64,000 bases of DNA from Oscillospiraceae bacterium (GTDB taxonomy: Bacteria; Bacillota; Clostridia; Oscillospirales; UBA929). A program made the position numbers and the translations under genes. Below, piece after piece: positions 12,511-25,283 of this stretch. The stretch spans positions 270-64,269 of the forward strand of contig JAVBOR010000018.1 in NCBI GenBank assembly GCA_031550325.1, given 5' to 3'. Numbering within the stretch: the stretch's first letter is position 1; each line of letters starts with the position of its first letter. Under the pieces are notes generated by a model that did not search any database, was not told where the DNA came from, and saw nothing but the letters and a program-made list of their open reading frames with translations.

Positions 12511-13125
12511 TTATCTCGCCGTAAAAAACTCTGCCTTCACAACCTGTTTCGCCCAAATCTCCCAGAAAACAGCCTGAATGCTTTTATTTTCATTTTTGCC
12601 GTACATCCAATTATCATCTTCCTTCGTAAGGTCAAAAACCCCATCCCAGCTTTTTATAATACGATCTCTCACGGTTAGAACACTGGAGCTTACAGACGCC
12701 GCACTCCTGATTTCATCACGGCTTACACCCAACGCTGCGCTCCAGGCATCAAACAGATTATCGTCTGCCTCATCAACAGCAATGTAGGCGTAGTTCAAAA
12801 CCATATGGAAGACATCAAAGTCCGAAAGCAGAATCTGTTCATCCGGAATCTCAAGCTCAAGCTGCACGCACTTTTCGCCGCGGACAGCGAGACCGCCGGA
12901 GCGCAGGTCACGGCGGCCTCTCTTGCCTTCCCACTGATACCATGCCCATATCGGATACCGCACGCCTGCCGGAGCGGGTACTCTTTCGGAGAGCTTTTTC
13001 GCCATCCAATCGTAGGCGTAACGAAAATCATCCTGACAGAAAAGGTGCTGTTCGTTCGCTGTCAGCTCGCCGGTATTCATAAGCTCCGCATACGCGTTTT
13101 CGTTTTGTATTGTCCAAAGCCTCAT
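12511..13125 (-). CDS. DUF3841-like protein
   Basis: MRLWTIQ...AYDWM...YPIWAWY...LLSDFDVFHMVLN...SIQAVFWEI pattern. Confidence 0.8.
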   Translation of the reverse strand: MRLWTIQNENAYAELMNTGELTANEQHLFCQDDFRYAYDWMAKKLSERVPAPAGVRYPIWAWYQWEGKRGRRDLRSGGLAVRGEKCVQLELEIPDEQILLSDFDVFHMVLNYAYIAVDEADDNLFDAWSAALGVSRDEIRSAASVSSSVLTVRDRIIKSWDGVFDLTKEDDNWMYGKNENKSIQAVFWEIWAKQVVKAEFFTAR

Positions 13126-14533: not shown

Positions 14534-14742
14534 AAGCTGAGGCTTTCCCGGATTTACTCCTGGAAAGCCTCAGCTTGTCAAAAAAGTCCCTCGCGTCCTC
14601 TTCCTCTATCGGTTTTCACGTCGAGCCTGACGCCGAAGCCGGCAGGTCCTCGCCTCTCTGAAAACCGATAAAGATAGAACCACAACGCTTTCACGGATTT
14701 ACTCCGGGAATGCCTTTCGCCGTAAACTGCCTCAGCGCATAT
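14534..14742 (-). repeat. Modular hairpin element copy (R-Q-S plus extra Q)
   Basis: GCTTTCACGGATTTACTCCGGGAA and CGTCGAGCCTGACGCC modules; overlaps the rpiB stop codon. Confidence 0.85.
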
Positions 14743-15193
14743 TGGCAGTCTCAATGTCCAGAATTTCCTGAACCTTTGGGGTGGACGGGCCGTCCACAAA
14801 CTCAAGCCCGATCCATTCGCCCGCGATTTTCTTGGCGAGGGAGTGGCCGATAACCCGTTCGCCCATGCAGAGGACGTTGGCGTTATTGCTCAGTACCGAG
14901 CGCTCTGCCGAAAAGTTGTCGTGGCAGACCGCGGCGCGTATGCCCTTGAACTTGTTCGCCGTCATGGCCATGCCGATGCCGGTGCCGCACACCAGAATCC
15001 CGCGTTTTGTGTAGCCGCTCTCAATGATGCTCTCGCACACCCGCCCGGCAATCGTCGGGTAATTGGTGCAGTCGCCGGCGCTGTCGCAGCCCATGTTCTC
15101 CACCGTCAGGCCCTTGCCCTCAAGAAAGGAGATCAGCATGTCCTTCATGGGGACGGCCGCGTTGTCGCAGCCGATGACAATGATCTTGTCCAT
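14732..15193 (-). CDS. rpiB: RpiB/LacA/LacB family sugar-phosphate isomerase (DerI-like, inferred)
   Basis: GCDNAA, CGTGIGM, AAVCHD, SNNANVLCMGERVIG. Confidence 0.9.
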   Translation of the reverse strand: MDKIIVIGCDNAAVPMKDMLISFLEGKGLTVENMGCDSAGDCTNYPTIAGRVCESIIESGYTKRGILVCGTGIGMAMTANKFKGIRAAVCHDNFSAERSVLSNNANVLCMGERVIGHSLAKKIAGEWIGLEFVDGPSTPKVQEILDIETANMR

Positions 15194-15196
15194 CTT

Positions 15197-15841
15197 TCAG
15201 TCCTCCGTTTGCGCCAGGATTCCGTCGGCCATGGCGCAGAGGATGATGCAGCAGGAGACCGCGCCCGCGTCCAAAACCCCGCGTGACCGCTCCCCAAGCC
15301 GACTCGAACGCCCAAACTTTGCAGCCAGCTCTTTGGTGGAGTCCCGCCCGTTGGCGGCTGCCTCCTTCATGGCGGGGAGGGCCTCTGCCAGGCTTTTCCC
15401 CGCGTCGGCCGCTCCCTCAAGCGCGTCAAGCGCGGGCGAGAGCGTGTCGACCAAGGTTTTGTCGCCGACGCGCGCCTCGACAATGTCATAGAGCCCGTCA
15501 AGCCCTGCCCGGAGCATCCGCGCAAGCTCACTTGCCCCTATTTCATTAAGTGCAGCGCCCGCCCCAGCCATGTCCATGAAAACCGTCCCGTAAATCGGGC
15601 CCATAGAGCCGCCGATCTCGGTGAGCAGGAGGGTTCCCAGCTCGTCGAGCCCATCGGTGAACGAAAGGGTTCTGCCGGCGGCCCGTTCGCCGAACAGGCT
15701 AAAGCCCTTGTTCATGTTCGCGCCGTGGTCGCCGTCGCCGATCAGTCCGTCGACCTCGCTGAGGTAGGCTTTGTTTGCCTTGACTGCCTCGACCATTTTG
15801 AGCAGAACCGGCAGCCCGTCCGCGTTGTAAAATGCGCCCAT
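15197..15841 (-). CDS. dhaL: Dihydroxyacetone/erythrulose kinase ADP-binding subunit DhaL
   Basis: DGLIGDGDHG, GGSMGPIYG, GDKTLVD, FGRSS...DAGA. Confidence 0.92.
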   Translation of the reverse strand: MGAFYNADGLPVLLKMVEAVKANKAYLSEVDGLIGDGDHGANMNKGFSLFGERAAGRTLSFTDGLDELGTLLLTEIGGSMGPIYGTVFMDMAGAGAALNEIGASELARMLRAGLDGLYDIVEARVGDKTLVDTLSPALDALEGAADAGKSLAEALPAMKEAAANGRDSTKELAAKFGRSSRLGERSRGVLDAGAVSCCIILCAMADGILAQTED

Positions 15842-15850
15842 AGTGCCTCC

Positions 15851-16846
15851 TTATCTCTGCTTCAGGCCCATGCCGTAGCAGGGCGCGTCGACGAGCCGCT
15901 TGAGCTCGTCGTCGAGCTTCATGAGCGTGAGCGTCGCACCCATCATCTCCAGCGACGTGAAGTAGTTCCCAACGTAGCTCCGGTGGATGATGATTCCTTT
16001 TTCGGCGAGCAGCCGGTCGACCTCGTCAAACAGCACGTACAGCTCCATGACCGGAGTCGCGCCGAGCCCGGAGATCAGTGCGACCACCTCGTCGCCCGCG
16101 ACAAAGGGATAGTCGGGGACAATCGCCTCTACCATGCGTTTGGCCATTTGCGCAGCAGTCTCCAGCGCGCAGACCTCAATCCCCGGCTCGCCGTGGTGGC
16201 CGATGCCGACCTCCATGGTTCCCTCTTTGATCTCAAAGTTCGGATGCCCCACCGCGGGCAGGGTGCAGGGGGTCAGTCCGATGCCGATGCTGCGTGTGTT
16301 GTCGATAGCCTTCTGCGCCACCCGAATGACGTCGTCAAGGCCCGCGCCGGTCGCTGCCTGTGCGCCGCCGACCTTCCACATCAGCACTTCGCCGGCCACG
16401 CCGCGGCGCTTTTCGGCCTGATCCTTGGGCGCGGAGGCCACGTCGTCGTTGGCGATGACGGTCTTCACCGCAATATTCTCTTTTTGGGCCATCTTAATGG
16501 CCATTTTAACGTTCATGTTGTCGCCGGAGTAGTTGCCGTACAGGCAGGCTACGCCCTTGCCCTGGTCGGCCGCCCTGAACGCGTCGAGGAACGCAGCCGC
16601 GGTGGGGGAGGAGCAAATTTCGCCCACAGCGACAGCATCGCAGAGGTTTTCGCCAATGTACCCGACAAACGCCGGTTTGTGGCCGCTGCCGCCGCCTGTC
16701 ACGACGCCGACATGATCCTTTGGCATGTCCGCGCGCCTGATCACGCGGGGGTTCCCGGTTGGGGAAACAATGTCGCCGTGGACTTTTACAAAGCCCTTTA
16801 GGTACTCGTCGACAATAAAGTCGGGATCGTTCAATATGCGCTGCAT
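15851..16846 (-). CDS. dhaK: Dihydroxyacetone/erythrulose kinase subunit DhaK
   Basis: GGGSGHKPAFVG, NYSGD, RRGVAG, GIGHHGEPG. Confidence 0.92.
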   Translation of the reverse strand: MQRILNDPDFIVDEYLKGFVKVHGDIVSPTGNPRVIRRADMPKDHVGVVTGGGSGHKPAFVGYIGENLCDAVAVGEICSSPTAAAFLDAFRAADQGKGVACLYGNYSGDNMNVKMAIKMAQKENIAVKTVIANDDVASAPKDQAEKRRGVAGEVLMWKVGGAQAATGAGLDDVIRVAQKAIDNTRSIGIGLTPCTLPAVGHPNFEIKEGTMEVGIGHHGEPGIEVCALETAAQMAKRMVEAIVPDYPFVAGDEVVALISGLGATPVMELYVLFDEVDRLLAEKGIIIHRSYVGNYFTSLEMMGATLTLMKLDDELKRLVDAPCYGMGLKQR

Positions 16847-16867
16847 CCTATTCTTCCTCTCATCCAG

Positions 16868-17956
16868 TTATCGTGATAGCCCCGGAACGATGGCCACCTT
16901 AATGGAGTTGTCCGCACCCGTGGTGGCCAGCTCAAAGGCCTTTTCCCAGTCGTCCAGGCCAAACTGATGGGTTACGACGCCGTCCGTGGGCATCGAGCCG
17001 TCCTGAATCCACTTGATCACCGAGGGATAGCAGTAGGGGCTGAGGTGCGCGCCCAGAAGGTCGAGCTCCTTGCGATCGCTGATGATGGACCAGTCGACGG
17101 TGACCGGGTCCTTAAACACCGAGAACTCCACAAAACGCCCCATCTTGCGGATCATGTCCAGGCCCTGCTGCACGCTGGAGGGGTGGCCGCTGGCCTCGAT
17201 ATAGATGTCGCAGCCGTACCCGCCGGTCAGCTCCATGATCTTTTCGGTCACGTTTTCCTTTCCGGGGTTCATCACGATGCCAGCGCCAAACGCCTTGGCT
17301 TTGGCAAGGCGCGCGTCGTTGAGGTCGAGCACGATAAAGGCAGCCGGGTTGCGCTTTATGACCGCTCCGACCATTCCCAGCCCGAGCGTTCCCGCGCCCG
17401 AGAGCACAACGACGTCCTCGTTGGAGATGTCCGCGCGGTCGACGCAGTGCTTGGAGCAACCGTAGGGCTCGATCAAAAGCGCCTGCTCCAGCGGCATGTC
17501 GTCGGGGATTCTGTATTTGCGGCCCTCGTGCGGATAGCGCATGTATTCGGCCATGCCGCCGTTGACGTTGTTCTGGAAGCCGTACAGGTCGTGCTTCTGG
17601 CACATCCAGTAGCGGCCGGTCCGGCAAAACCTGCATTGCCCGCAGGGCACGATTTGCTCGGAGACAACGCGGTCGCCCACCCTAAACTCCGTCTGGGCCG
17701 GGCCAATCTCCACGACCGTGCCGACAAACTCGTGGCCGGGAACCATGGGAGCCTTGATGTAGGCCGGCTGGCCGTCCCCGCCCCAAAAGCTGGGCGCGCC
17801 GCCAAACGCCTTGGTGTCTCCGGCGCAGACGCCGCAGCCCTCTACCCTGACGATGACGTCGTCGGCGACAGCGCGGGGCGTGGGAATCATCTCCAGCCGG
17901 TAATCGCCGGGCGCGTAGGCGACAAGGGCCTTCATTTTTTCAGGCAGCTGTGACAT
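16868..17956 (-). CDS. Zn-dependent polyol dehydrogenase, erythritol/L-threitol dehydrogenase (EltD)-like
   Basis: GHEF, structural Zn CxxCxxCx7C, and TVDWSIISDRKELDLLGAHLSPYC, which I recall as EltD-like. Confidence 0.82.
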   Translation of the reverse strand: MSQLPEKMKALVAYAPGDYRLEMIPTPRAVADDVIVRVEGCGVCAGDTKAFGGAPSFWGGDGQPAYIKAPMVPGHEFVGTVVEIGPAQTEFRVGDRVVSEQIVPCGQCRFCRTGRYWMCQKHDLYGFQNNVNGGMAEYMRYPHEGRKYRIPDDMPLEQALLIEPYGCSKHCVDRADISNEDVVVLSGAGTLGLGMVGAVIKRNPAAFIVLDLNDARLAKAKAFGAGIVMNPGKENVTEKIMELTGGYGCDIYIEASGHPSSVQQGLDMIRKMGRFVEFSVFKDPVTVDWSIISDRKELDLLGAHLSPYCYPSVIKWIQDGSMPTDGVVTHQFGLDDWEKAFELATTGADNSIKVAIVPGLSR

Positions 17957-18028
17957 GGATCATTCCTCCTTTTGATGATGGTTGGTGGATGCATGCTTTG
18001 AGCGGGGCGATGCGGGCAAGGGCGCGAT

Positions 18029-19477
18029 TCAAGTGGTCGCGAGGCTGACTGCGTCCTTCCACCGCTCTCGTTTTTTAGCCCGAACTTCGGGTGCCATTTG
18101 GGGATAGTAGCGGGTTCTCTCCACCGAACTGAACAGAGCCTCCCGCGTATAGATGCCGCAGGCCATCCCGGCAAGATAGGCGGCGCCCATGACAGAGAGC
18201 TCCTCCTCCCGGCGGATGTCCATTCTGACGTTGGAGATGTCGCTTTGAAACTGCATCAGGTAGCCGTCTCTCGTGGGCCCGCCGTCGGCGAAAAGTCCCT
18301 CGATTGCCACCCCGCTGTCGCTCCGCATGGCCTGAAGGACGTCGTCAATCTGGAAAGCGATGCTCTCCTCGGCGGCTTTGATGATCTCGCTGCGTCCGGT
18401 AGTTCTGGACATCCCGCAAAGGATGGCCTTCGCGCCGTCGTTCCAGTGGGGCGCGCCAAGGCCGGAAAACGCCGGAACCAGAACCGTGGTGTCCTCCGGG
18501 TTGGCAGCCGCGAGCGCAGGCTGAATGTCCCTGTGCGAGGCAATGAGCTTAAGGTCGTCCTTAAGCCAGCTCATCACGGCGCCTGTGTAGTTGATGTTGC
18601 CCTCCAGCACATAGTCGACCGTCCCGTCGATTCCCCACGCCAGAGAGGTGGCCAGCCCGTTTTGACTGCCCGCGTATTGCCTGCCGATGTTCATCATAAT
18701 CGAGGAGCCCGTGCCATAGGTCGTCTTGACCATGCCCCTGTCGTGGCAGCCCTGTCCGAACAGCGCTCCGTGCGAATCGCCGATGACGCCGTGAATGGGG
18801 ACTTTGTGGTCAAAAAGGCCCTCCATGTCCGTGTGGCCGAAGACAGCGTTGCTGTCGCAGACCTCCGGTAATGACGCCATAGGCACGCCGAACAAAGCGC
18901 AGAGCTCTGCGTCCCACGCCAGCGTGTGCAGGTTAAACAGCTGGGTGCGCGACGCGTTGGAAAAGTCAGTCTTGAACATCTCGCCGCCGGTCAGCTTGTA
19001 CACGAGCCAGCTGTCCACGGTGCCGAGCAGGCAGCTCTCCCCCCGGGCGGCGTGCCTCAGCAGCCAGGCCATCTTCCCGGCGGGGAAATACGGGGACAGG
19101 GGAAGCCCTGTCTTCTCGAGAATATGTTTTGCGTGGGGCTGGAGAGCGTCGGTGATCTCCTTGGCGCGGGCGCACTGCCATACAACCGCCTTGTCAATGG
19201 GCAGGCCTTCTTTGTCCCAGGCGACGGTGGTCTCCCGCTGGTTGCTGATCCCGATGGCCGCGACGGCGTCCTTTGAGACGCCGGTCTGCTCGAGGACATC
19301 CCGGGCGGCTTGAATCACATTGCCGTAAATCTCCCCGGCATCGTGGGACACAAAGCCCCGGTCGCTGATGTACTGCCGGTGTTCGCGGTCAGCCCGGCCA
19401 ACAATGCCGCCGGACTCGTCAAACAAAACGGCCTTGGTTCCCTGCGTGCTTTGATCGATCCCCAAAATGTACTTCAT
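18029..19477 (-). CDS. FGGY family (glycerol kinase-like) carbohydrate kinase, apulose kinase-like
   Basis: IDQSTQGTK, ISNQRETT, TDFSNASRT, KTTYGTG, DGG. Confidence 0.85.
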   Translation of the reverse strand: MKYILGIDQSTQGTKAVLFDESGGIVGRADREHRQYISDRGFVSHDAGEIYGNVIQAARDVLEQTGVSKDAVAAIGISNQRETTVAWDKEGLPIDKAVVWQCARAKEITDALQPHAKHILEKTGLPLSPYFPAGKMAWLLRHAARGESCLLGTVDSWLVYKLTGGEMFKTDFSNASRTQLFNLHTLAWDAELCALFGVPMASLPEVCDSNAVFGHTDMEGLFDHKVPIHGVIGDSHGALFGQGCHDRGMVKTTYGTGSSIMMNIGRQYAGSQNGLATSLAWGIDGTVDYVLEGNINYTGAVMSWLKDDLKLIASHRDIQPALAAANPEDTTVLVPAFSGLGAPHWNDGAKAILCGMSRTTGRSEIIKAAEESIAFQIDDVLQAMRSDSGVAIEGLFADGGPTRDGYLMQFQSDISNVRMDIRREEELSVMGAAYLAGMACGIYTREALFSSVERTRYYPQMAPEVRAKKRERWKDAVSLATT

Positions 19478-19478
19478 T

Positions 19479-20411
19479 TCACACCTCGGCAAGCGTATCT
19501 TTTACTTTTTGGGCGATGCCGCCGGCATCCATGCCATAGTGCGCGAACACCTCGTTGTTTTCCCCCGCGATAATATGGCCGTCCGGCAGGGAGATCGGCA
19601 AAAGCCTTTTGGGGTTCTTTACCGAAAGCACCTGCGAGACAAGGCTGGACAGCCCGCCAAAGGGGCAGTGCTCCTCGACGGTGACAACCAGCTTAGCGCG
19701 CGCCGCCGCGAGAACGGCCCTCTCGTCCAGCGGCTTGAGGCAGTACATGTCTGTGACGCCGGCGCTGATATTCATGTCCCGCAGCAGGGCGGCGGCCCGT
19801 ACCGCGCGGGGAACCATCTCTCCGCAGGCGATGATCGCGGCGTCGGAGCCCTCCGAGAGGACGCACGCCCTGTCAAGCGCAAAGGGCAGGCTCTCGTCAT
19901 ACACATCCTGCGTGGCCGAGCGGCTTACCCGCACATAAGAGGGCTTTTCGTCCTGCATCAGCGCTTTTATGAGCTTTGCGGTCTGGAAGCGGTCGCTGGG
20001 CAGGTACACTCGCATGCCCGGCAGCGCGGTCATGGCGGCGACGTCCTGCAGCGAGTGGTGGGTCATCCCGAGGGCGCCGTAGCTGACCCCTCCGCTGATG
20101 CCCAGCAAAAGCACGTTGGTGCCCGAGTAGGCCACGTCGATCTTTGCCTGCTCGTAGCTTCTGGTGGAGAGAAAGCTTGCCGGCGAGGCGGCGATCACTT
20201 TCTTGCCGCAGGCGGCAAGCCCCGCGGCGACGGACACCAGATTCTGCTCGGCGATGCCGATCTCCACAAACTGCTTTGGATAGCGCTCGGCAAAGGGGGT
20301 CAGGGAGGCCGAGCCGCGCGAATCCGAGCAGAGCACGACGATATCCCTGTCCTGTTCGGCAAGGGCCATCAGGGTGTCGCAGACGGCCTGCCTGTTTGTC
20401 ATGGTGTTCAC
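19479..20411 (-). CDS. Transketolase C-terminal (pyrimidine-binding) subunit, AptB-like
   Basis: SDSRGSASL, GIAEQNL, THHSLQD, VEEH. Confidence 0.88.
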   Translation of the reverse strand: MNTMTNRQAVCDTLMALAEQDRDIVVLCSDSRGSASLTPFAERYPKQFVEIGIAEQNLVSVAAGLAACGKKVIAASPASFLSTRSYEQAKIDVAYSGTNVLLLGISGGVSYGALGMTHHSLQDVAAMTALPGMRVYLPSDRFQTAKLIKALMQDEKPSYVRVSRSATQDVYDESLPFALDRACVLSEGSDAAIIACGEMVPRAVRAAALLRDMNISAGVTDMYCLKPLDERAVLAAARAKLVVTVEEHCPFGGLSSLVSQVLSVKNPKRLLPISLPDGHIIAGENNEVFAHYGMDAGGIAQKVKDTLAEV

Positions 20412-21226
20412 TTCAGCGCCTCCTCAAGCTCCGATACGGCCTGCCTGTACTGCGTCTCACTGAGCACGCCGTGGTGCCAGCCGGCCCGGTTTTCCATGAA
20501 GGAAACGCCCTTGCCCTTGCAAGTGCGGGCAATGACCGCCGTGGGCCTCTCCTTGCAGGCCCCGGCCCGCCGAAACGCGTCAAGCAGCTGGACGCAATCG
20601 TTGCCGTCGGCAGCCTCGGTCACATGCCAGCCGAACTCTCTGAACTTGGCGGCCAAATCGCCGCTGTCCATGACGTCTTTGGTCTGGCCGCTGATTTGCA
20701 GGCCGTTGCAGTCGACCACCGCGCAAAGATTGTCCAGCCCGTAGTGGCCGGCGGCCATCATGCCCTCGTAGTTGGAGCCCTCGGCCATCTCGCCGTCGCC
20801 CAGAACCACATAGGTGCGATAGCTTCGCCCGTCCATTTTGGCGGCGAGCGCCATGCCGACGCCGACGGAAATGCCGTGGCCAAGGGAACCCGAGTTGATC
20901 TCGATCCCCGGCACATCGGTGTTGGGGTGGCCGATAAACCTGGAGTCGAACCGGCTGAAGGTCTCGATGGCCTGCCGCTTGTTAAAGTAGCCTTTCTCCC
21001 CAAGCACGCAGTACAGGGCGCCGACGCAGTGGCCCTTACTGAGCAGGAGTCTGTCCCTGTCGGGGTCTTTTGGCCGCTCGGGGAAGACGTTCATCACCGC
21101 GAAGTAGAGTACCGTGAGGATGTCGACGACGCTCAGGTCACCGCCCACATGCCCCGCCCGGGAGAGATAGTCCATGTCGACAATGTCTTTGCGCAAGTTT
21201 GCCGCCACTTTGGCCAGATGCTCCAT
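20408..21226 (-). CDS. Transketolase N-terminal (TPP-binding) subunit, AptA-like
   Basis: GHVGGDLS, DRDRLLLSKGH, GSLGHG, GDGEMAEG..N, KGKG...WHH. Confidence 0.9.
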   Translation of the reverse strand: MEHLAKVAANLRKDIVDMDYLSRAGHVGGDLSVVDILTVLYFAVMNVFPERPKDPDRDRLLLSKGHCVGALYCVLGEKGYFNKRQAIETFSRFDSRFIGHPNTDVPGIEINSGSLGHGISVGVGMALAAKMDGRSYRTYVVLGDGEMAEGSNYEGMMAAGHYGLDNLCAVVDCNGLQISGQTKDVMDSGDLAAKFREFGWHVTEAADGNDCVQLLDAFRRAGACKERPTAVIARTCKGKGVSFMENRAGWHHGVLSETQYRQAVSELEEALK

Positions 21227-21236
21227 GCAGCGCCTC

Positions 21237-22016
21237 CTACCTGATGGTGAAACCACCGTCAATCACGAGGTTTTCGCCGGTGATCATGTTGGATTCGGGG
21301 CAGGAGAGGAACAAAATGGAGGCTGCGATCTCGTCTACCTCGGCAAAACGGTTGGCGGGGATGGCCTGGATCATGTCGTCCTTGACCTTGCCCTGCCAGG
21401 CGCGCTCTCCCATATAGGTGCGGACTACGGTGGGCGCAACGGCGTTGACGTTGATCCCGAACTCCGCCCACTCCAGCGCGCAGACCTTCACCATGCCGAT
21501 CAGGGCGGCCTTGCTCATGGTGTAGCCGACGTGCTTGTCGATGGCGATAAAGCTGGCCTGTGAGCCCACGCAGACGATCTTGCCGCCCTTGCCCTGCTTA
21601 ATCATCACGTTGGCCACCTTCTGGCAGAGCCTGAACACGCTCAGCGCGTTGACGTTCATCTGGTGCTCCACATGGACAAAATCAATGTCCTCGGCGTTGT
21701 CGAGATCCACGCGCCCCGCCACGTTGGCCAGAATGCCAATCTCGCCGAATGTCTCCAGCGCCGTGTTCACTATGTTGTCCATGTCGTCGGGATTCGTCAG
21801 GTCGGCCTGCACGCCGACGGCCTGAATACCATAGTCGCGCGCAATGGAGGCGGCCACCTCCGCCACGTTGTCCTTGATGTCCGCCAGGACAAGATGCGCG
21901 CCCTTTTGGGCGTACATCCGGGCGGTCGCTTCGCCGATGCCCCCGGCCCCGCCCGTGACAATGGCGACTTTTCCGGACAGATCAAATGCGCCTGTTACTT
22001 TTTCATACGCGATCAT
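21237..22016 (-). CDS. SDR dehydrogenase, D-threitol dehydrogenase (DthD/GolD)-like
   Basis: TGGAGGIG, YTMSK, SQA..IA..KHV and ITGENLVIDGGFTI. Confidence 0.85.
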   Translation of the reverse strand: MIAYEKVTGAFDLSGKVAIVTGGAGGIGEATARMYAQKGAHLVLADIKDNVAEVAASIARDYGIQAVGVQADLTNPDDMDNIVNTALETFGEIGILANVAGRVDLDNAEDIDFVHVEHQMNVNALSVFRLCQKVANVMIKQGKGGKIVCVGSQASFIAIDKHVGYTMSKAALIGMVKVCALEWAEFGINVNAVAPTVVRTYMGERAWQGKVKDDMIQAIPANRFAEVDEIAASILFLSCPESNMITGENLVIDGGFTIR

Positions 22017-22051
22017 TTCTCAGCAACTCCTTTTGTGTTCTGTTTTACTGA

Positions 22052-22080
22052 ATGGTATCACTAAATGACCCATATGTAAA
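22052..22080 (-). promoter_or_regulatory. sigA-type promoter of the polyol operon
   Basis: TTTACA-17bp-TACCAT with an extended TG on the minus strand; TAGTAAAC motif overlaps the -35. Confidence 0.6.
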
Positions 22081-22205
22081 TAGTAAACATCACAGATTTC
22101 AAGCGGAAAAACGGCCGGCGACAAGGGTGATGAAAGCGCCGGGGCCGAGATGCGGCAGGGGCTTGTCCTGAAAAGTTTCCGTTTACTAAACGGTTAATAA
22201 AATGA

Positions 22206-22234
22206 TTGACACGATTTTGCCCGGACACTATAAT
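22206..22234 (+). promoter_or_regulatory. Consensus sigA promoter of the LacI gene
   Basis: TTGACA-17bp-TATAAT; near-palindrome GTTTACTAAAC just upstream (about 22181-22191). Confidence 0.85.
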
Positions 22235-22275
22235 GAAAAGGAGAGTGCCGATAACACGATGATGAGGGTTTCGCC

Positions 22276-23304
22276 ATGACCAACAAAGAGATTGCCCGGT
22301 GTCTGGAGATCTCACCGGCAGCGCTGTCTCTGATCCTGAACAACAAAACGGGCGTTTCGGATGCCACTCGCAGGCGTGTGCTGGCGAAAATAGACGAGAT
22401 GGGTTATTCTCACCTCGTTAAAAGGAGCGCGCAGCAGAGCCCCAACCTGTGCTTTGTGGTCTACAAGCGGCATGGGGAAATCCTGGATCAGCATCCCTTT
22501 TTCCTGCTTTTGATGGAGAGCATTGAAAGTCAGGCGAGAAAGTACGGCTACAGCATTTTGCTCACGACCATCGACAACCGGAACCCGATCCAGCCCCAGG
22601 TGGCGCGCCTGGACGGCATGGACGCCCGGGGGGCGATTATCTTTGCGACTGAGATGCTCCAGCAGGACCTCTCGTTTTTCGATCAGTTGAGCATGCCCTT
22701 TATCGCGCTGGACAACGACTTTACCTGGTTTAACATCAATACGGTCTCGATCAACAACCAGATGGGAACGTATCAGGCCATCCGGCATCTGGCGGAGCTG
22801 GGGCACAAAAAGATCGGGTATCTGCGGTGCGGTGTGCGCATCAGCAGCTTTGCCGAGAGGGAAAAGGGCTTCAAAGACGCCCTGGAGGCGTACGCGCTCG
22901 AGCTGGAGCCGCGCTTTGTCTGCGACGTCAGATACACCGTCGAGGGAAGCTTCCAGGACTTCAAAAAGTTTCTGGCGGCGGCCCCGGAGCTTCCCACCGC
23001 GTTTGTCACGGATGACGACACCATTGCCTGGGGCGTGATGAAGGCGCTGCAGGAGGCTGGATTCTCCATTCCCGGGGACGTCTCCCTCGTCGGCTTTAAC
23101 GACCGGCCTGACTGCGAGATCACCATGCCGCCGCTGACGTCGGTCAACGTGCCCAGGCTGTCCTTTGGAAACGAGGCGATCGATCATTTGATGCGGCTGA
23201 TCAAGAAGCGCGAGCAGTCCGAAACAAACGGCAGGTCGAAGAAGACGCGCATCGCCACGCAGCTGGTCATTCGGGGAACGACCAGAGCTTGCGGCGCTGA
23301 ATAA
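22276..23304 (+). CDS. LacI family transcriptional regulator
   Basis: N-terminal HTH (NKEIARCLEISPAALSLILN) and periplasmic-binding-protein-like sugar-binding domain. Confidence 0.93.
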   Translation: MTNKEIARCLEISPAALSLILNNKTGVSDATRRRVLAKIDEMGYSHLVKRSAQQSPNLCFVVYKRHGEILDQHPFFLLLMESIESQARKYGYSILLTTIDNRNPIQPQVARLDGMDARGAIIFATEMLQQDLSFFDQLSMPFIALDNDFTWFNINTVSINNQMGTYQAIRHLAELGHKKIGYLRCGVRISSFAEREKGFKDALEAYALELEPRFVCDVRYTVEGSFQDFKKFLAAAPELPTAFVTDDDTIAWGVMKALQEAGFSIPGDVSLVGFNDRPDCEITMPPLTSVNVPRLSFGNEAIDHLMRLIKKREQSETNGRSKKTRIATQLVIRGTTRACGAE

Positions 23305-23418
23305 GATTCGGCCACTCTGGCAGAATGGCTTATGAGGCGCGCTTTTTGGAAAACGATGTAAAAACAGGTTCTATTTCCCTTGACTGGTGAATCCATTACA
23401 CCAAAGGGGGGAGCAGCC

Positions 23419-24045
23419 GTGGGCATTTTTGGCAGAAACGAGCGTTTCCAGAAGAGGGGCTCCGCCGTGCCGCCCGAGAGGCTGTTGGTGTTTCTGGCGC
23501 ACTACAAGGCGGTCAATCCCATGTACGGCGCCGGCAGCCGGCAGGAGTTTGAGGATCATCCCGACCATCAAAAAGTTAGAGCCATGCAGCTGGAGCTCGA
23601 GGGCCGCTTTGTCGAGCGGCGCACGGGGTTTGCCGGGGGAGGGCGGGCGCAGTGCATCTTCGGCAGGCGCGCTGCCCACATGAGGCCGCTGACCTGGAAT
23701 CCCCAAGAGACGGGGACCGTGTATCCGTTCCAATGGTATGACAGGGTTTTGGGGGTAAATGACGCCGACGACGGGCGTGTTTTGGAGAAGATGGACTTGT
23801 TCCTCCGGCTTCGCTATCTCGCGGGCGCTGCTCCGGACGAGCGCCGCCTGTTTATGCAGCGGGCCGGCCCTTCTTTTGAGGTTCTCTTCAACCCAAATAG
23901 CCGCAAAATGATGACCGTGCGGTCGGAGGCGCTGTCAACGGCCTTTTGCCTTGTGCTGGTGCCCAACGTGCGCCCGGCCGGCGCCTCTGGAGGCTTGCTC
24001 AGCGAATCCGCCGCGGCCGGCGGCGTTGTACAAAGGAAGGAGTGA
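23419..24045 (+). CDS. Hypothetical protein, no family recognised
   Basis: GTG start after a purine-rich RBS; stop overlaps the RBS of the next gene. Confidence 0.65.
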   Translation: MGIFGRNERFQKRGSAVPPERLLVFLAHYKAVNPMYGAGSRQEFEDHPDHQKVRAMQLELEGRFVERRTGFAGGGRAQCIFGRRAAHMRPLTWNPQETGTVYPFQWYDRVLGVNDADDGRVLEKMDLFLRLRYLAGAAPDERRLFMQRAGPSFEVLFNPNSRKMMTVRSEALSTAFCLVLVPNVRPAGASGGLLSESAAAGGVVQRKE

Positions 24046-24050
24046 TTCTT

Positions 24051-25283
24051 GTGGAGTCGGCCAGACTGCCGCCCGCAGAGCGCTGCGCCGGAGACTGCGG
24101 CGAGCCGGACAGGCTCGTCTGCCACGAGTGCGTGGGCGACTACGCGCTGCGCCGCTTTATCAGGCAAAACGGGGCGCGCGGGCGCTGCGATTATTGCGGC
24201 AGGAGCCGCAATAGTATTCGGCTGGGGGCGCTCATGGAACCCGTGATGGACGGCATACGGAGCCAGTACAGCGACGCCCCGAAGACGCATGAAGACCCCG
24301 GGGTGGGCAGTCTGCCGACATATGACGGCTATGATCTGATTTGCGATGAGCTGGCCGGGGAGTTGGACATCCCAAACCCCGACCTTTTGCGCGACATCGC
24401 CCGGCTGATGGACAGCCAAACCATCTGGTATGTGAACAGTTTTTTCGAGGGCAGCGAGGACGAGGACGCATACTATTCGTGGGAGCTCTTTTCAAGGCTG
24501 GTAAAGGAAGAGGCGCGCTATGTCTTTTACTCGCTGCCAGCCGAGCAGGACAGGCCGGTGGGCTCTTCCCCGGTGCAGATCCTGGACGTCATCAGGGGAT
24601 ATGTCGATCTGCTCAGGCTCGTCCATCCGGTTTCGCCCGAAAGCCACAAGATATACAGAGGCAGGGCCCACGGCCCAGAGACCAGCTTCACCGCGGTGGA
24701 GGAGTTTTGCCCTCCCGACCGCCTGAGGGCGAAGGCCAACCGGATGAGCCCGGAGGGCATCCCCATGTTTTACGGGGCGTATGAAAAGGAAACGGTTCTG
24801 GCGGAGATTTACAGCGCGGAGCAGGAGTGCGCCACCGTGGCGGAGTTCAGCCTGCAGCGCCCCATTCAGGTGCTTGACCTGACCATCCCGTTCAGGCGCG
24901 CGCTTCCCAGCCTGTTTGACAAGGAAAAGAGGGCGCAGCGATACCCGCTGCTGTTTCTGCGGCGCTTTGCCGAGGCCATCTCAAAGCCGACGCGCGGCCA
25001 AGACGGCATAGAGTATGTCCCAAGCCAGGTGGTCACCGAGTTTTTTAAGCATGTTTACAGGACGCGTGACGGGATAAAGCTGGACGGCATCGTCTACAAA
25101 AGCGCGAAACGGGAGAACGGGCGCTGCATTGTGCTGTTTATCGGTAAGGAGGGCTGCGCCGAACGCCACGAGAACCCTGAAAACAAACCGGCAAAAGATG
25201 CGCCCTTCCGCCCGCCTCTTTTGCGGATGAATCCCAAAAAGCTGGTTCGAGTTCGCAAAGAGTGGTATACTGTGTCGGGGTGA
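24051..25283 (+). CDS. Zn-ribbon/HEPN-associated N-terminal domain + RES domain protein
   Basis: CHEC...CDYC pairs; RES signature YRGR, NRMSPEGIPMFYGA, EYVPSQ, GIVYKS. Confidence 0.85.
   Translation: MESARLPPAERCAGDCGEPDRLVCHECVGDYALRRFIRQNGARGRCDYCGRSRNSIRLGALMEPVMDGIRSQYSDAPKTHEDPGVGSLPTYDGYDLICDELAGELDIPNPDLLRDIARLMDSQTIWYVNSFFEGSEDEDAYYSWELFSRLVKEEARYVFYSLPAEQDRPVGSSPVQILDVIRGYVDLLRLVHPVSPESHKIYRGRAHGPETSFTAVEEFCPPDRLRAKANRMSPEGIPMFYGAYEKETVLAEIYSAEQECATVAEFSLQRPIQVLDLTIPFRRALPSLFDKEKRAQRYPLLFLRRFAEAISKPTRGQDGIEYVPSQVVTEFFKHVYRTRDGIKLDGIVYKSAKRENGRCIVLFIGKEGCAERHENPENKPAKDAPFRPPLLRMNPKKLVRVRKEWYTVSG

Follow-up and report, generated by a model that had tools for sequence, protein, structure and literature searches.

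The window analyzed here, a 64,000-nucleotide stretch of the genome of an Oscillospiraceae bacterium (GenBank assembly GCA_031550325.1, contig JAVBOR010000018.1, positions 270 to 64,269), contains a hybrid operon that joins two sets of catabolic genes, each of which is found alone elsewhere. The first set (module 1) encodes a short-chain dehydrogenase/reductase (SDR), a transketolase split into N- and C-terminal subunits (TK-N and TK-C) and an FGGY-family kinase, together with a LacI-family repressor; the second (module 2) encodes a zinc-dependent alcohol dehydrogenase (Zn-ADH), the kinase subunits DhaK and DhaL, and an RpiB-type isomerase. Our preferred reading, held with moderate confidence, is that module 1 is a variant of the D-apiose transketolase pathway in which the SDR stands in for the isomerase, that module 2 is an erythritol route, and that both are expressed as one LacI-controlled transcript. 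What is newly found is the single-SDR version of the pathway in Clostridia and its fusion with the erythritol module; the operon arranges known parts in a new way and is not a new kind of pathway.

D-apiose is found in pectin (rhamnogalacturonan II) and in plant glycosides, and erythritol is a common sweetener whose fermentation in the gut is usually considered poor. If correct, the preferred reading would provide a concrete candidate erythritol-to-erythrose-4-phosphate (E4P) route for gut Clostridia, would show that the apiose transketolase pathway can begin with exchangeable enzymes (ApsI, FucI-like isomerases, SDRs or Zn-ADHs), and would supply a small enzyme set for dehydrogenase entry, likewise proposed for pandemic Escherichia coli ST131. 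No new kind of chemistry is revealed, the parts belonging to known families.

As described in the literature that cites Carter et al. (2018), the D-apiose transketolase route consists of ApsI, AplK and the AptA/AptB transketolase; apulose kinase is classified as EC 2.7.1.233, and the characterized enzymes are AplK (Q6D5T8) and AptAB of Pectobacterium. The apiose cluster of E. coli ST131/STc14 is without apsI and has two putative oxidoreductases instead; strains that carry it grow on D-apiose, and the oxidoreductases were proposed to replace ApsI (Royer et al. 2026, PMC13001218). The erythritol and threitol routes of Mycobacterium smegmatis involve EltD, LerK, LerI and DerI, as well as DthD and DerK (Huang et al. 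2015, as summarized by He et al. 2023). EltD and LerK turn erythritol into D-erythrulose-4-phosphate and L-threitol into L-erythrulose-1-phosphate; DerI makes E4P from D-erythrulose-4-phosphate, and LerI is needed first only for L-erythrulose-1-phosphate (He et al. 2023). The EYD1/EYK1/EYI erythritol cluster of Yarrowia is analogous, with the same enzyme types.

Kinase and transketolase of the apiose type

Searched with the window kinase, metagenome contigs yielded 80 loci, most of which encode a LacI-family regulator, a FucI-like isomerase of about 470 amino acids, TK-N, TK-C and the FGGY kinase, many with an additional apiosidase-like hydrolase (PF13204). The same LacI/FucI-like isomerase/TK-N/TK-C/FGGY cluster is present in Monoglobus pectinilyticus, a pectin specialist. 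Like the D-apiose transketolase route, the operon places a GlpK-derived FGGY kinase beside a dedicated split transketolase; in contrast to that route, it has no isomerase, apiose-type ATP-binding cassette (ABC) transporter or apiosidase, the SDR occupies the entry position, and four tetritol-type genes are added.

The kinase shows 42% identity to E. coli GlpK; of the GlpK models it passes the loose subfamily one only, falling short of the equivalog TIGR01311 (513 bits, cut-off 590). The residues that bind glycerol in GlpK (R, E, W, Y and D) are retained in the window kinase and in all 62 family members, whatever their neighbors, and the phenylalanine that closes the GlpK pocket (F270) is a serine in the window kinase. 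A signature of GDSH and GTGSS (GDQQ and GTGCF in GlpK) is shared by the window kinase, 62 of 62 family members, and the apiose kinase of E. coli strain SE15, from which the E. coli cluster was taken for comparison (NC_013654, 572041-582988; E. fergusonii also carries this type of apiose cluster). A GlpK-like paralog on another contig of the same genome (C61) retains GDQQ and GTGCF and is the better GlpK candidate. In the kinase tree, a branch with a Shimodaira-Hasegawa-like approximate likelihood ratio test (SH-aLRT) value of 96 unites the SE15 kinase with the clostridial family, to the exclusion of E. coli GlpK and the paralogs of this genome. Ordinary glycerol and dihydroxyacetone catabolism (GlpK with DhaKL) was considered and rejected, as the GlpK pocket is missing from the kinase and the genome has a true GlpK-like gene elsewhere.

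Relative to the SE15 proteins, identities are 45% for TK-N, 37% for TK-C and 38% for the kinase, and TK-N is 68-74% identical to its counterparts at three of the loci described below (L062, L066 and L064). The cofactor-binding and catalytic residues of the transketolase are retained (H26, H66, H100, D155, N185, H261, E411 and H473). All 63 family members have serine and leucine at the positions of H461 and D469, respectively, of TktA, and share the motif GGVSYGALGMTHH in TK-C; the leucine and an SYGxL..HH motif also occur in the SE15 transketolase. A transketolase clade with an SH-aLRT value of 100 comprises the window, SDR-type, isomerase-type and Zn-ADH-type clusters, and SE15 AptAB. The other split transketolase of this genome (contig C48) and the other split transketolases of its relatives fall outside this clade, and neither the former nor the GlpK-like paralog bears the apiose-cluster signatures. 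Within the family trees, the window kinase and transketolase group with SDR-type loci, embedded among loci linked to isomerase and apiosidase.

The original prediction for this stretch had named clustering with ordinary glycerol kinase and housekeeping transketolase as the outcome that would tell against it; both proteins instead cluster with enzymes of apiose clusters, including that of E. coli ST131. From this family placement and the gene context, we infer that the pair probably acts as apulose kinase and apulose-4-phosphate transketolase.

A single dehydrogenase at the entry position

Three of the 80 loci (L062, L063 and L066; a fourth, L064, is cut) have a LacI gene divergent from genes for an SDR, TK-N, TK-C, the FGGY kinase and an MFS_2 transporter, encoding proteins 52-70% identical to those of the window. 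No isomerase, second oxidoreductase, RpiB or DhaKL was found near these three. Their SDRs, which occupy the isomerase position of the other clusters, are 66-68% identical to that of the window. Because the SDR holds this position accompanied only by a single transporter, its simplest substrate would be a polyol that is oxidized at C2 to the substrate of the kinase, which suggests conversion of D-apiitol to apulose. That a DthD-like enzyme should accept apiitol is chemically reasonable, as apiitol differs from erythritol or threitol by an additional hydroxymethyl group. The idea that a dehydrogenase takes the place of the isomerase had been put forward in the earlier prediction, and these conserved operons, with neither an isomerase nor a second oxidoreductase, support it; its novelty is limited, the exchange of apiose isomerase for oxidoreductases having already been proposed in E. 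coli ST131 (Royer et al. 2026, PMC13001218).

By family, the SDR falls narrowly below the cut-off of the GolD/DthD model NF005309 (283 bits, cut-off 286), and many relatives at 67-84% identity are present in Clostridia, some of them, including relatives at 69-73%, named GolD/DthD or D-threitol dehydrogenase by NCBI. A search of 400 genomes of the same order gave two stand-alone matches (74% and 63% identity), and a search of 399 genomes of the same class gave none.

Dehydrogenase entry recurs in three forms: the single SDR, a distinct Zn-ADH, and the two SDRs of E. coli. The second form is exemplified by a locus (L112:9989-18797) that encodes a DeoR-type regulator, an FGGY kinase, a split transketolase, a Zn-ADH, a CUT2-type ABC transporter and a histidine phosphatase, with counterparts at L124, L137, L111, L115, L120 and L128; the Zn-ADH of this type is only 27-30% identical to that of the window, and no isomerase was detected within the flanks searched. 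The third form, the cluster of E. coli ST131/STc14 and E. fergusonii, resembles the window in pairing an apiose-type kinase and transketolase with dehydrogenases in place of the isomerase, but differs in having two SDRs, a SorC regulator and an ABC transporter, and in having no Zn-ADH, DhaKL or RpiB. Between the window SDR and the two SE15 SDRs, identity is only 26-31%, a relationship no closer than family level. A blastn comparison of a clostridial cluster with E. coli genomes gave no match.

The E. coli cluster serves as the model for a different reading, an oxidoreductive D-apiose route in which one dehydrogenase of the window would convert apiose to apiitol and the other apiitol to apulose, the two jointly replacing the isomerase, with DhaKL and RpiB as accessories. 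The window does combine two oxidoreductases, the same count as in the SE15 cluster, with AplK/AptAB-like genes and no isomerase, and strains with the SE15-type cluster do grow on D-apiose. We nevertheless consider this route quite unlikely, given the distance between the window and E. coli SDRs, the single oxidoreductase of the SDR-type clusters elsewhere, and a Zn-ADH that is 71-80% identical to enzymes found beside DhaKL and RpiB in genomes without an apiose-type transketolase. In addition, neither an apiose ABC binding protein nor an apiosidase-like hydrolase had a match in the genome (tblastn, E<1e-8).

Another contig of this genome, C49 (L142:7669-11705), encodes a FucI-like isomerase that is 73% identical to the isomerase of two clusters of the TK-FGGY-ABC-RbsD type (L019 and L021). 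Its gene adjoins that of an 854-amino-acid beta-helix protein at the extreme contig end and has no neighboring kinase, transketolase or transporter; the isomerase may feed the window kinase and transketolase from an aldose.

The erythritol-type module

The window Zn-ADH, a putative erythritol dehydrogenase, has relatives at 83-85% identity that carry the NCBI name erythritol/L-threitol dehydrogenase. Its homologs at 62-80% identity adjoin DhaK-DhaL in other genomes and on plasmids, in some cases with RpiB and in others without it. DhaK is 65-71% identical to the DhaK encoded beside Zn-ADH at L042-L046; its best NCBIfam match is a fused, ATP-type family (NF011049, 430 bits), the kinase here being split into two subunits. 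The DhaM/EIIA-man domain (PF03610) was not found in the 95%-complete genome, in which HPr is present, and the absence of DhaM points to ATP as the likely phosphate donor. The operon RpiB, which passes the rpiB models and scores 137 bits against the rhizobial DerI equivalog NF051858 (cut-off 240), is a second copy; a separate RpiB, 37% identical to it, is encoded on contig C58.

In common with the M. smegmatis routes, the operon has a putative polyol dehydrogenase, a DAK-family kinase and an RpiB-type isomerase that would lead to E4P, as well as an SDR of the DthD family; it differs in its split DhaK/DhaL kinase, in having no TIM-type LerI and no ABC transporter, and in the fused apiose-type module. 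The missing LerI had earlier been taken as a pointer to a new route, a view we do not share: since EltD, LerK and DerI suffice to take erythritol to E4P (He et al. 2023), its absence is expected for an erythritol route. It also makes L-threitol an improbable substrate.

Sets of the ZnADH-RpiB-DhaK-DhaL type are present in three other Clostridia (Zn-ADH 71-80% identical, DhaK about 70%), and no transketolase more than 38% identical to that of the window was found in the Clostridia genomes with a stand-alone module 2. At L042, the only one of these loci that was annotated, the block has an ABC transporter on one side and further sugar genes on the other. This locus (L042:893-16532, genome G215) begins with a response regulator of the AraC type and an SBP_bac_1 ABC transporter and continues beyond the module with a different FGGY kinase, an aldolase-like gene of class II and two 2-hydroxyacid dehydrogenases; it may be a wider tetritol/tetrulose locus.

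IncHI1B plasmids of enterobacteria also carry module 2, together with tkt, tal and a major facilitator superfamily (MFS) transporter; a plasmid of Pseudalkalibacillus, a relative of Bacillus, carries it with glpX. On one E. coli plasmid (L160; NZ_CP063469.1, 105410-114609), the only record of this type whose context was read, tkt-tal-rpiB and ZnADH-MFS-DhaK-DhaL-SorC units are flanked by insertion sequences, and Zn-ADH matches of this type (about 65% identity) also occur on Klebsiella, Salmonella and Raoultella plasmids; the block is a probable mobile erythritol-type catabolic module. The stand-alone clusters (L042-L046, L160 and L161) share the same four genes with the window (Zn-ADH 62-80%, DhaK 65-71%). 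They differ in gene order; some include tkt-tal or glpX and none AplK/AptAB-type genes, and those annotated have their own ABC or MFS transporter and an AraC-type response regulator, SorC or DeoR.

Fusion of the two modules

In the window, module 2 starts exactly at the position held by the MFS_2 transporter in the SDR-type clusters, and the junction coincides exactly with a 72-nucleotide spacer between the genes for the FGGY kinase and the Zn-ADH (17957-18028); all other intergenic distances range from -4 to 21 nucleotides. A second fused operon was not found in the material searched, the contigs of the closest relatives (kinase 69-74%, SDR 81-84%, Zn-ADH 84-85% identical) lying outside that material. 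In a weaker substitute, a cross-comparison of the match lists of these relatives, SDR and kinase were linked on six contigs, none of them linked to Zn-ADH; in Clostridium sp. AM58-1XD, the matches to SDR and kinase share a single contig of 122,332 bp. The genus has just one further genome (G001, 80% complete), which encodes TK-N, TK-C and FGGY kinase at 55-59% identity on one contig (C27; L008); no close SDR was found in it by the order search (E<1e-70), and Zn-ADH was not searched there. Within what was searched, the fusion of apiose-type and erythritol-type genes appears only here.

The position of the junction raises the possibility of an evolutionary accident, in which the erythritol module displaced the MFS transporter and the halves are merely co-transcribed, one or both of them possibly idle. 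The absence here of the MFS_2 gene that follows the kinase at L062, L064 and L066, with module 2 beginning at that very point, would fit such an event, as would flanking genes of mobile or defense type (among them a HEPN/RES protein) and the lack of any other contig on which both modules were detected. Against it, all frames of the operon are intact, each of the eight catabolic genes with a good ribosome-binding site (GGAGG-type sites precede every gene of the operon), and GC content and GC content at third codon positions are uniform over both modules and in line with the genome, arguing for long residence under selection; in addition, a GlpF-type channel is available for polyol entry. We regard an accident as very unlikely.

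Proposed function and its alternatives

In the preferred reading, module 1 would act in three steps: the SDR would oxidize a polyol at its C2 hydroxyl, giving a 2-ketose, the best-fitting candidate being D-apiitol to apulose; the FGGY kinase would phosphorylate the glycerol-like end to give apulose-4-phosphate; and the transketolase would transfer C1-C2 to an aldose phosphate (glyceraldehyde-3-phosphate, or E4P), releasing dihydroxyacetone phosphate. Module 2 would convert erythritol to D-erythrulose (Zn-ADH), D-erythrulose-4-phosphate (ATP-type DhaK/DhaL) and E4P (RpiB). Uptake would be encoded outside the operon, for example by the GlpF-type channel, of which the genome encodes one. As E4P would need a ketol donor to enter glycolysis, the module 1 transketolase could supply xylulose-5-phosphate or transfer the unit from apulose-4-phosphate; such cooperation of the modules, prompted by the tkt/tal and glpX genes beside plasmid-borne module 2, is speculation. 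A stronger version, in which the single GolD/DthD SDR would be an undescribed entry to apulose in gut Clostridia (from D-apiitol or another branched polyol) and transfer of the two-carbon unit of apulose-4-phosphate to E4P would give fructose-6-phosphate and dihydroxyacetone phosphate without transaldolase, seems doubtful to us. No transaldolase is detectable in the genome. Processing of erythrulose by the transketolase, also proposed in the original prediction, finds no support in the data; on reasoning only, we rejected cleavage of erythrulose-4-phosphate by this enzyme, which would yield glycolaldehyde phosphate, a product without known fate.

Alternatively, the whole operon could serve tetritols. 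The SDR and Zn-ADH would then oxidize D-threitol and erythritol to D-erythrulose, DhaKL (perhaps with the FGGY kinase) would phosphorylate it, RpiB would produce E4P, and the transketolase would only pull E4P into glycolysis. Each enzyme family by which M. smegmatis degrades D-threitol and erythritol is indeed represented, including an SDR of the GolD/DthD family; plasmid-borne ZnADH-DhaKL-RpiB modules carry tkt and tal, or glpX; use of E4P must lean on transketolase in a genome with no detectable transaldolase; and the kinase might accept erythrulose, which is apulose minus one hydroxymethyl group. Yet the kinase and transketolase bear apiose-cluster signatures and nest in apiose clusters near apiosidase-linked ones, the SDR-type clusters elsewhere are without RpiB and DhaKL, the transketolase of the plasmid clusters is an ordinary full-length tkt and not of the window type, and the genome already encodes another split transketolase. 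We consider a purely tetritol operon unlikely.

Several points weigh against apiose-type and erythritol-type routes side by side. The SDR may equally turn D-threitol into D-erythrulose for the downstream DhaKL and RpiB; it belongs to the D-threitol/galactitol dehydrogenase family and is also found alone in other genomes, and therefore need not be specific for apulose. There is hardly any record of D-apiitol as a natural compound, the literature searched mentioning it almost only as an analytical derivative, and the operon has no transporter. The link to apiose enzymes runs through the E. coli ST131 cluster, NCBI names and papers, and the branches of the SE15 sequences are long in the two trees, so that the grouping of the SE15 kinase is supportive rather than conclusive. 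Likewise, the likeness to M. smegmatis EltD, LerK and DerI is one of enzyme type, names and papers, and the RpiB is only 46-49% identical to that of the ZnADH-RpiB-DhaKL clusters, in which the gene order differs. Finally, all substrates, all reactions and the coupling of the modules are inferred.

Operon layout and control region

Open reading frames (ORFs), Pfam and NCBIfam confirmed the gene content claimed in the original prediction, with all nine genes at the positions given there (Table 1). The eight catabolic genes are packed on the minus strand and the LacI-family gene diverges from them on the plus strand. The starts of TK-N (ATG at 21226, with a ribosome-binding site) and of the FGGY kinase were refined to ATGs that fit their relatives. 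As had also been claimed, Pfam and NCBIfam searches of the operon genes gave neither an apiose isomerase (ApsI or FucI-like) nor a TIM-type LerI; nor was a transporter found among them.

Table 1. Features of the hybrid operon (window coordinates).
Feature	Position	Strand	Basis
LacI-family repressor	22276..23304	+	Pfam LacI + Peripla_BP_3
Divergent control region	22017..22275	.	Promoter matches + candidate operator
Classical SDR, GolD/DthD family; proposed polyol 2-dehydrogenase (entry enzyme)	21237..22016	-	NF005309, locus context
AptA-like transketolase N-terminal (thiamine pyrophosphate-binding) subunit	20408..21226	-	Pfam Transketolase_N
AptB-like transketolase pyrimidine-binding/C-terminal subunit	19479..20411	-	Pfam Transket_pyr + Transketolase_C
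AplK-like FGGY kinase, GlpK-derived; proposed apulose kinase	18029..19477	-	FGGY_N/C (PF00370 + PF02782)
Zn-dependent medium-chain dehydrogenase, EltD-like; proposed erythritol dehydrogenase	16868..17956	-	ADH_N + ADH_zinc_N
DhaK, two-subunit DAK-family kinase; proposed erythrulose kinase	15851..16846	-	Dak1
DhaL, nucleotide-binding subunit	15197..15841	-	Dak2, TIGR02365
RpiB/LacAB-family isomerase, second copy; proposed isomerase of D-erythrulose-4-phosphate (DerI-like)	14732..15193	-	LacAB_rpiB

The LacI protein is 52-56% identical to those encoded divergently from the SDR-type clusters L062, L063 and L066. Upstream of lacI lies a perfect sigma-70 promoter match (TTGACA-17-TATAAT, plus strand, 22206-22234), and a weaker promoter-like site with a TG extension faces the operon (TTTACA-17-TACCAT, minus strand, 22080-22052). 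A 7-1-7 palindrome at 22179-22193 (CCGTTTA-N-TAAACGG) is a candidate operator, and a CGTTTAGT-like motif recurs between the genes in the control regions of L062, L063 and L066; the palindrome is the putative site at which LacI would control the operon. A terminator scan gave fewer matches than in shuffled sequence; neither the junction of the modules nor the end of rpiB had one. Both modules are presumably co-transcribed as a single LacI-controlled transcript.

Genome context and flanking genes

The genome is 2.04 Mb in size and 95% complete, its named relatives being Oscillospiraceae such as Marasmitruncus, Acutalibacter and Anaerofilum. Horizontal transfer was considered on grounds of composition and rejected: the GC content of the operon (60.8%, compared with 58.6% for the genome) is reached or exceeded in 21% of 8.5-kb segments and is ordinary for the genome, so that composition gives no sign of recent transfer.

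Past lacI (window positions 23380-25283), a 221-amino-acid ORF without a Pfam match overlaps the start of the gene for a 445-amino-acid HEPN/RES-domain protein, an arrangement that looks like a toxin or defense pair. On the other side, a DUF3841 protein is encoded on the minus strand (window positions 12511-13125), between the left flank of the operon and DNA of lower GC content (51%).

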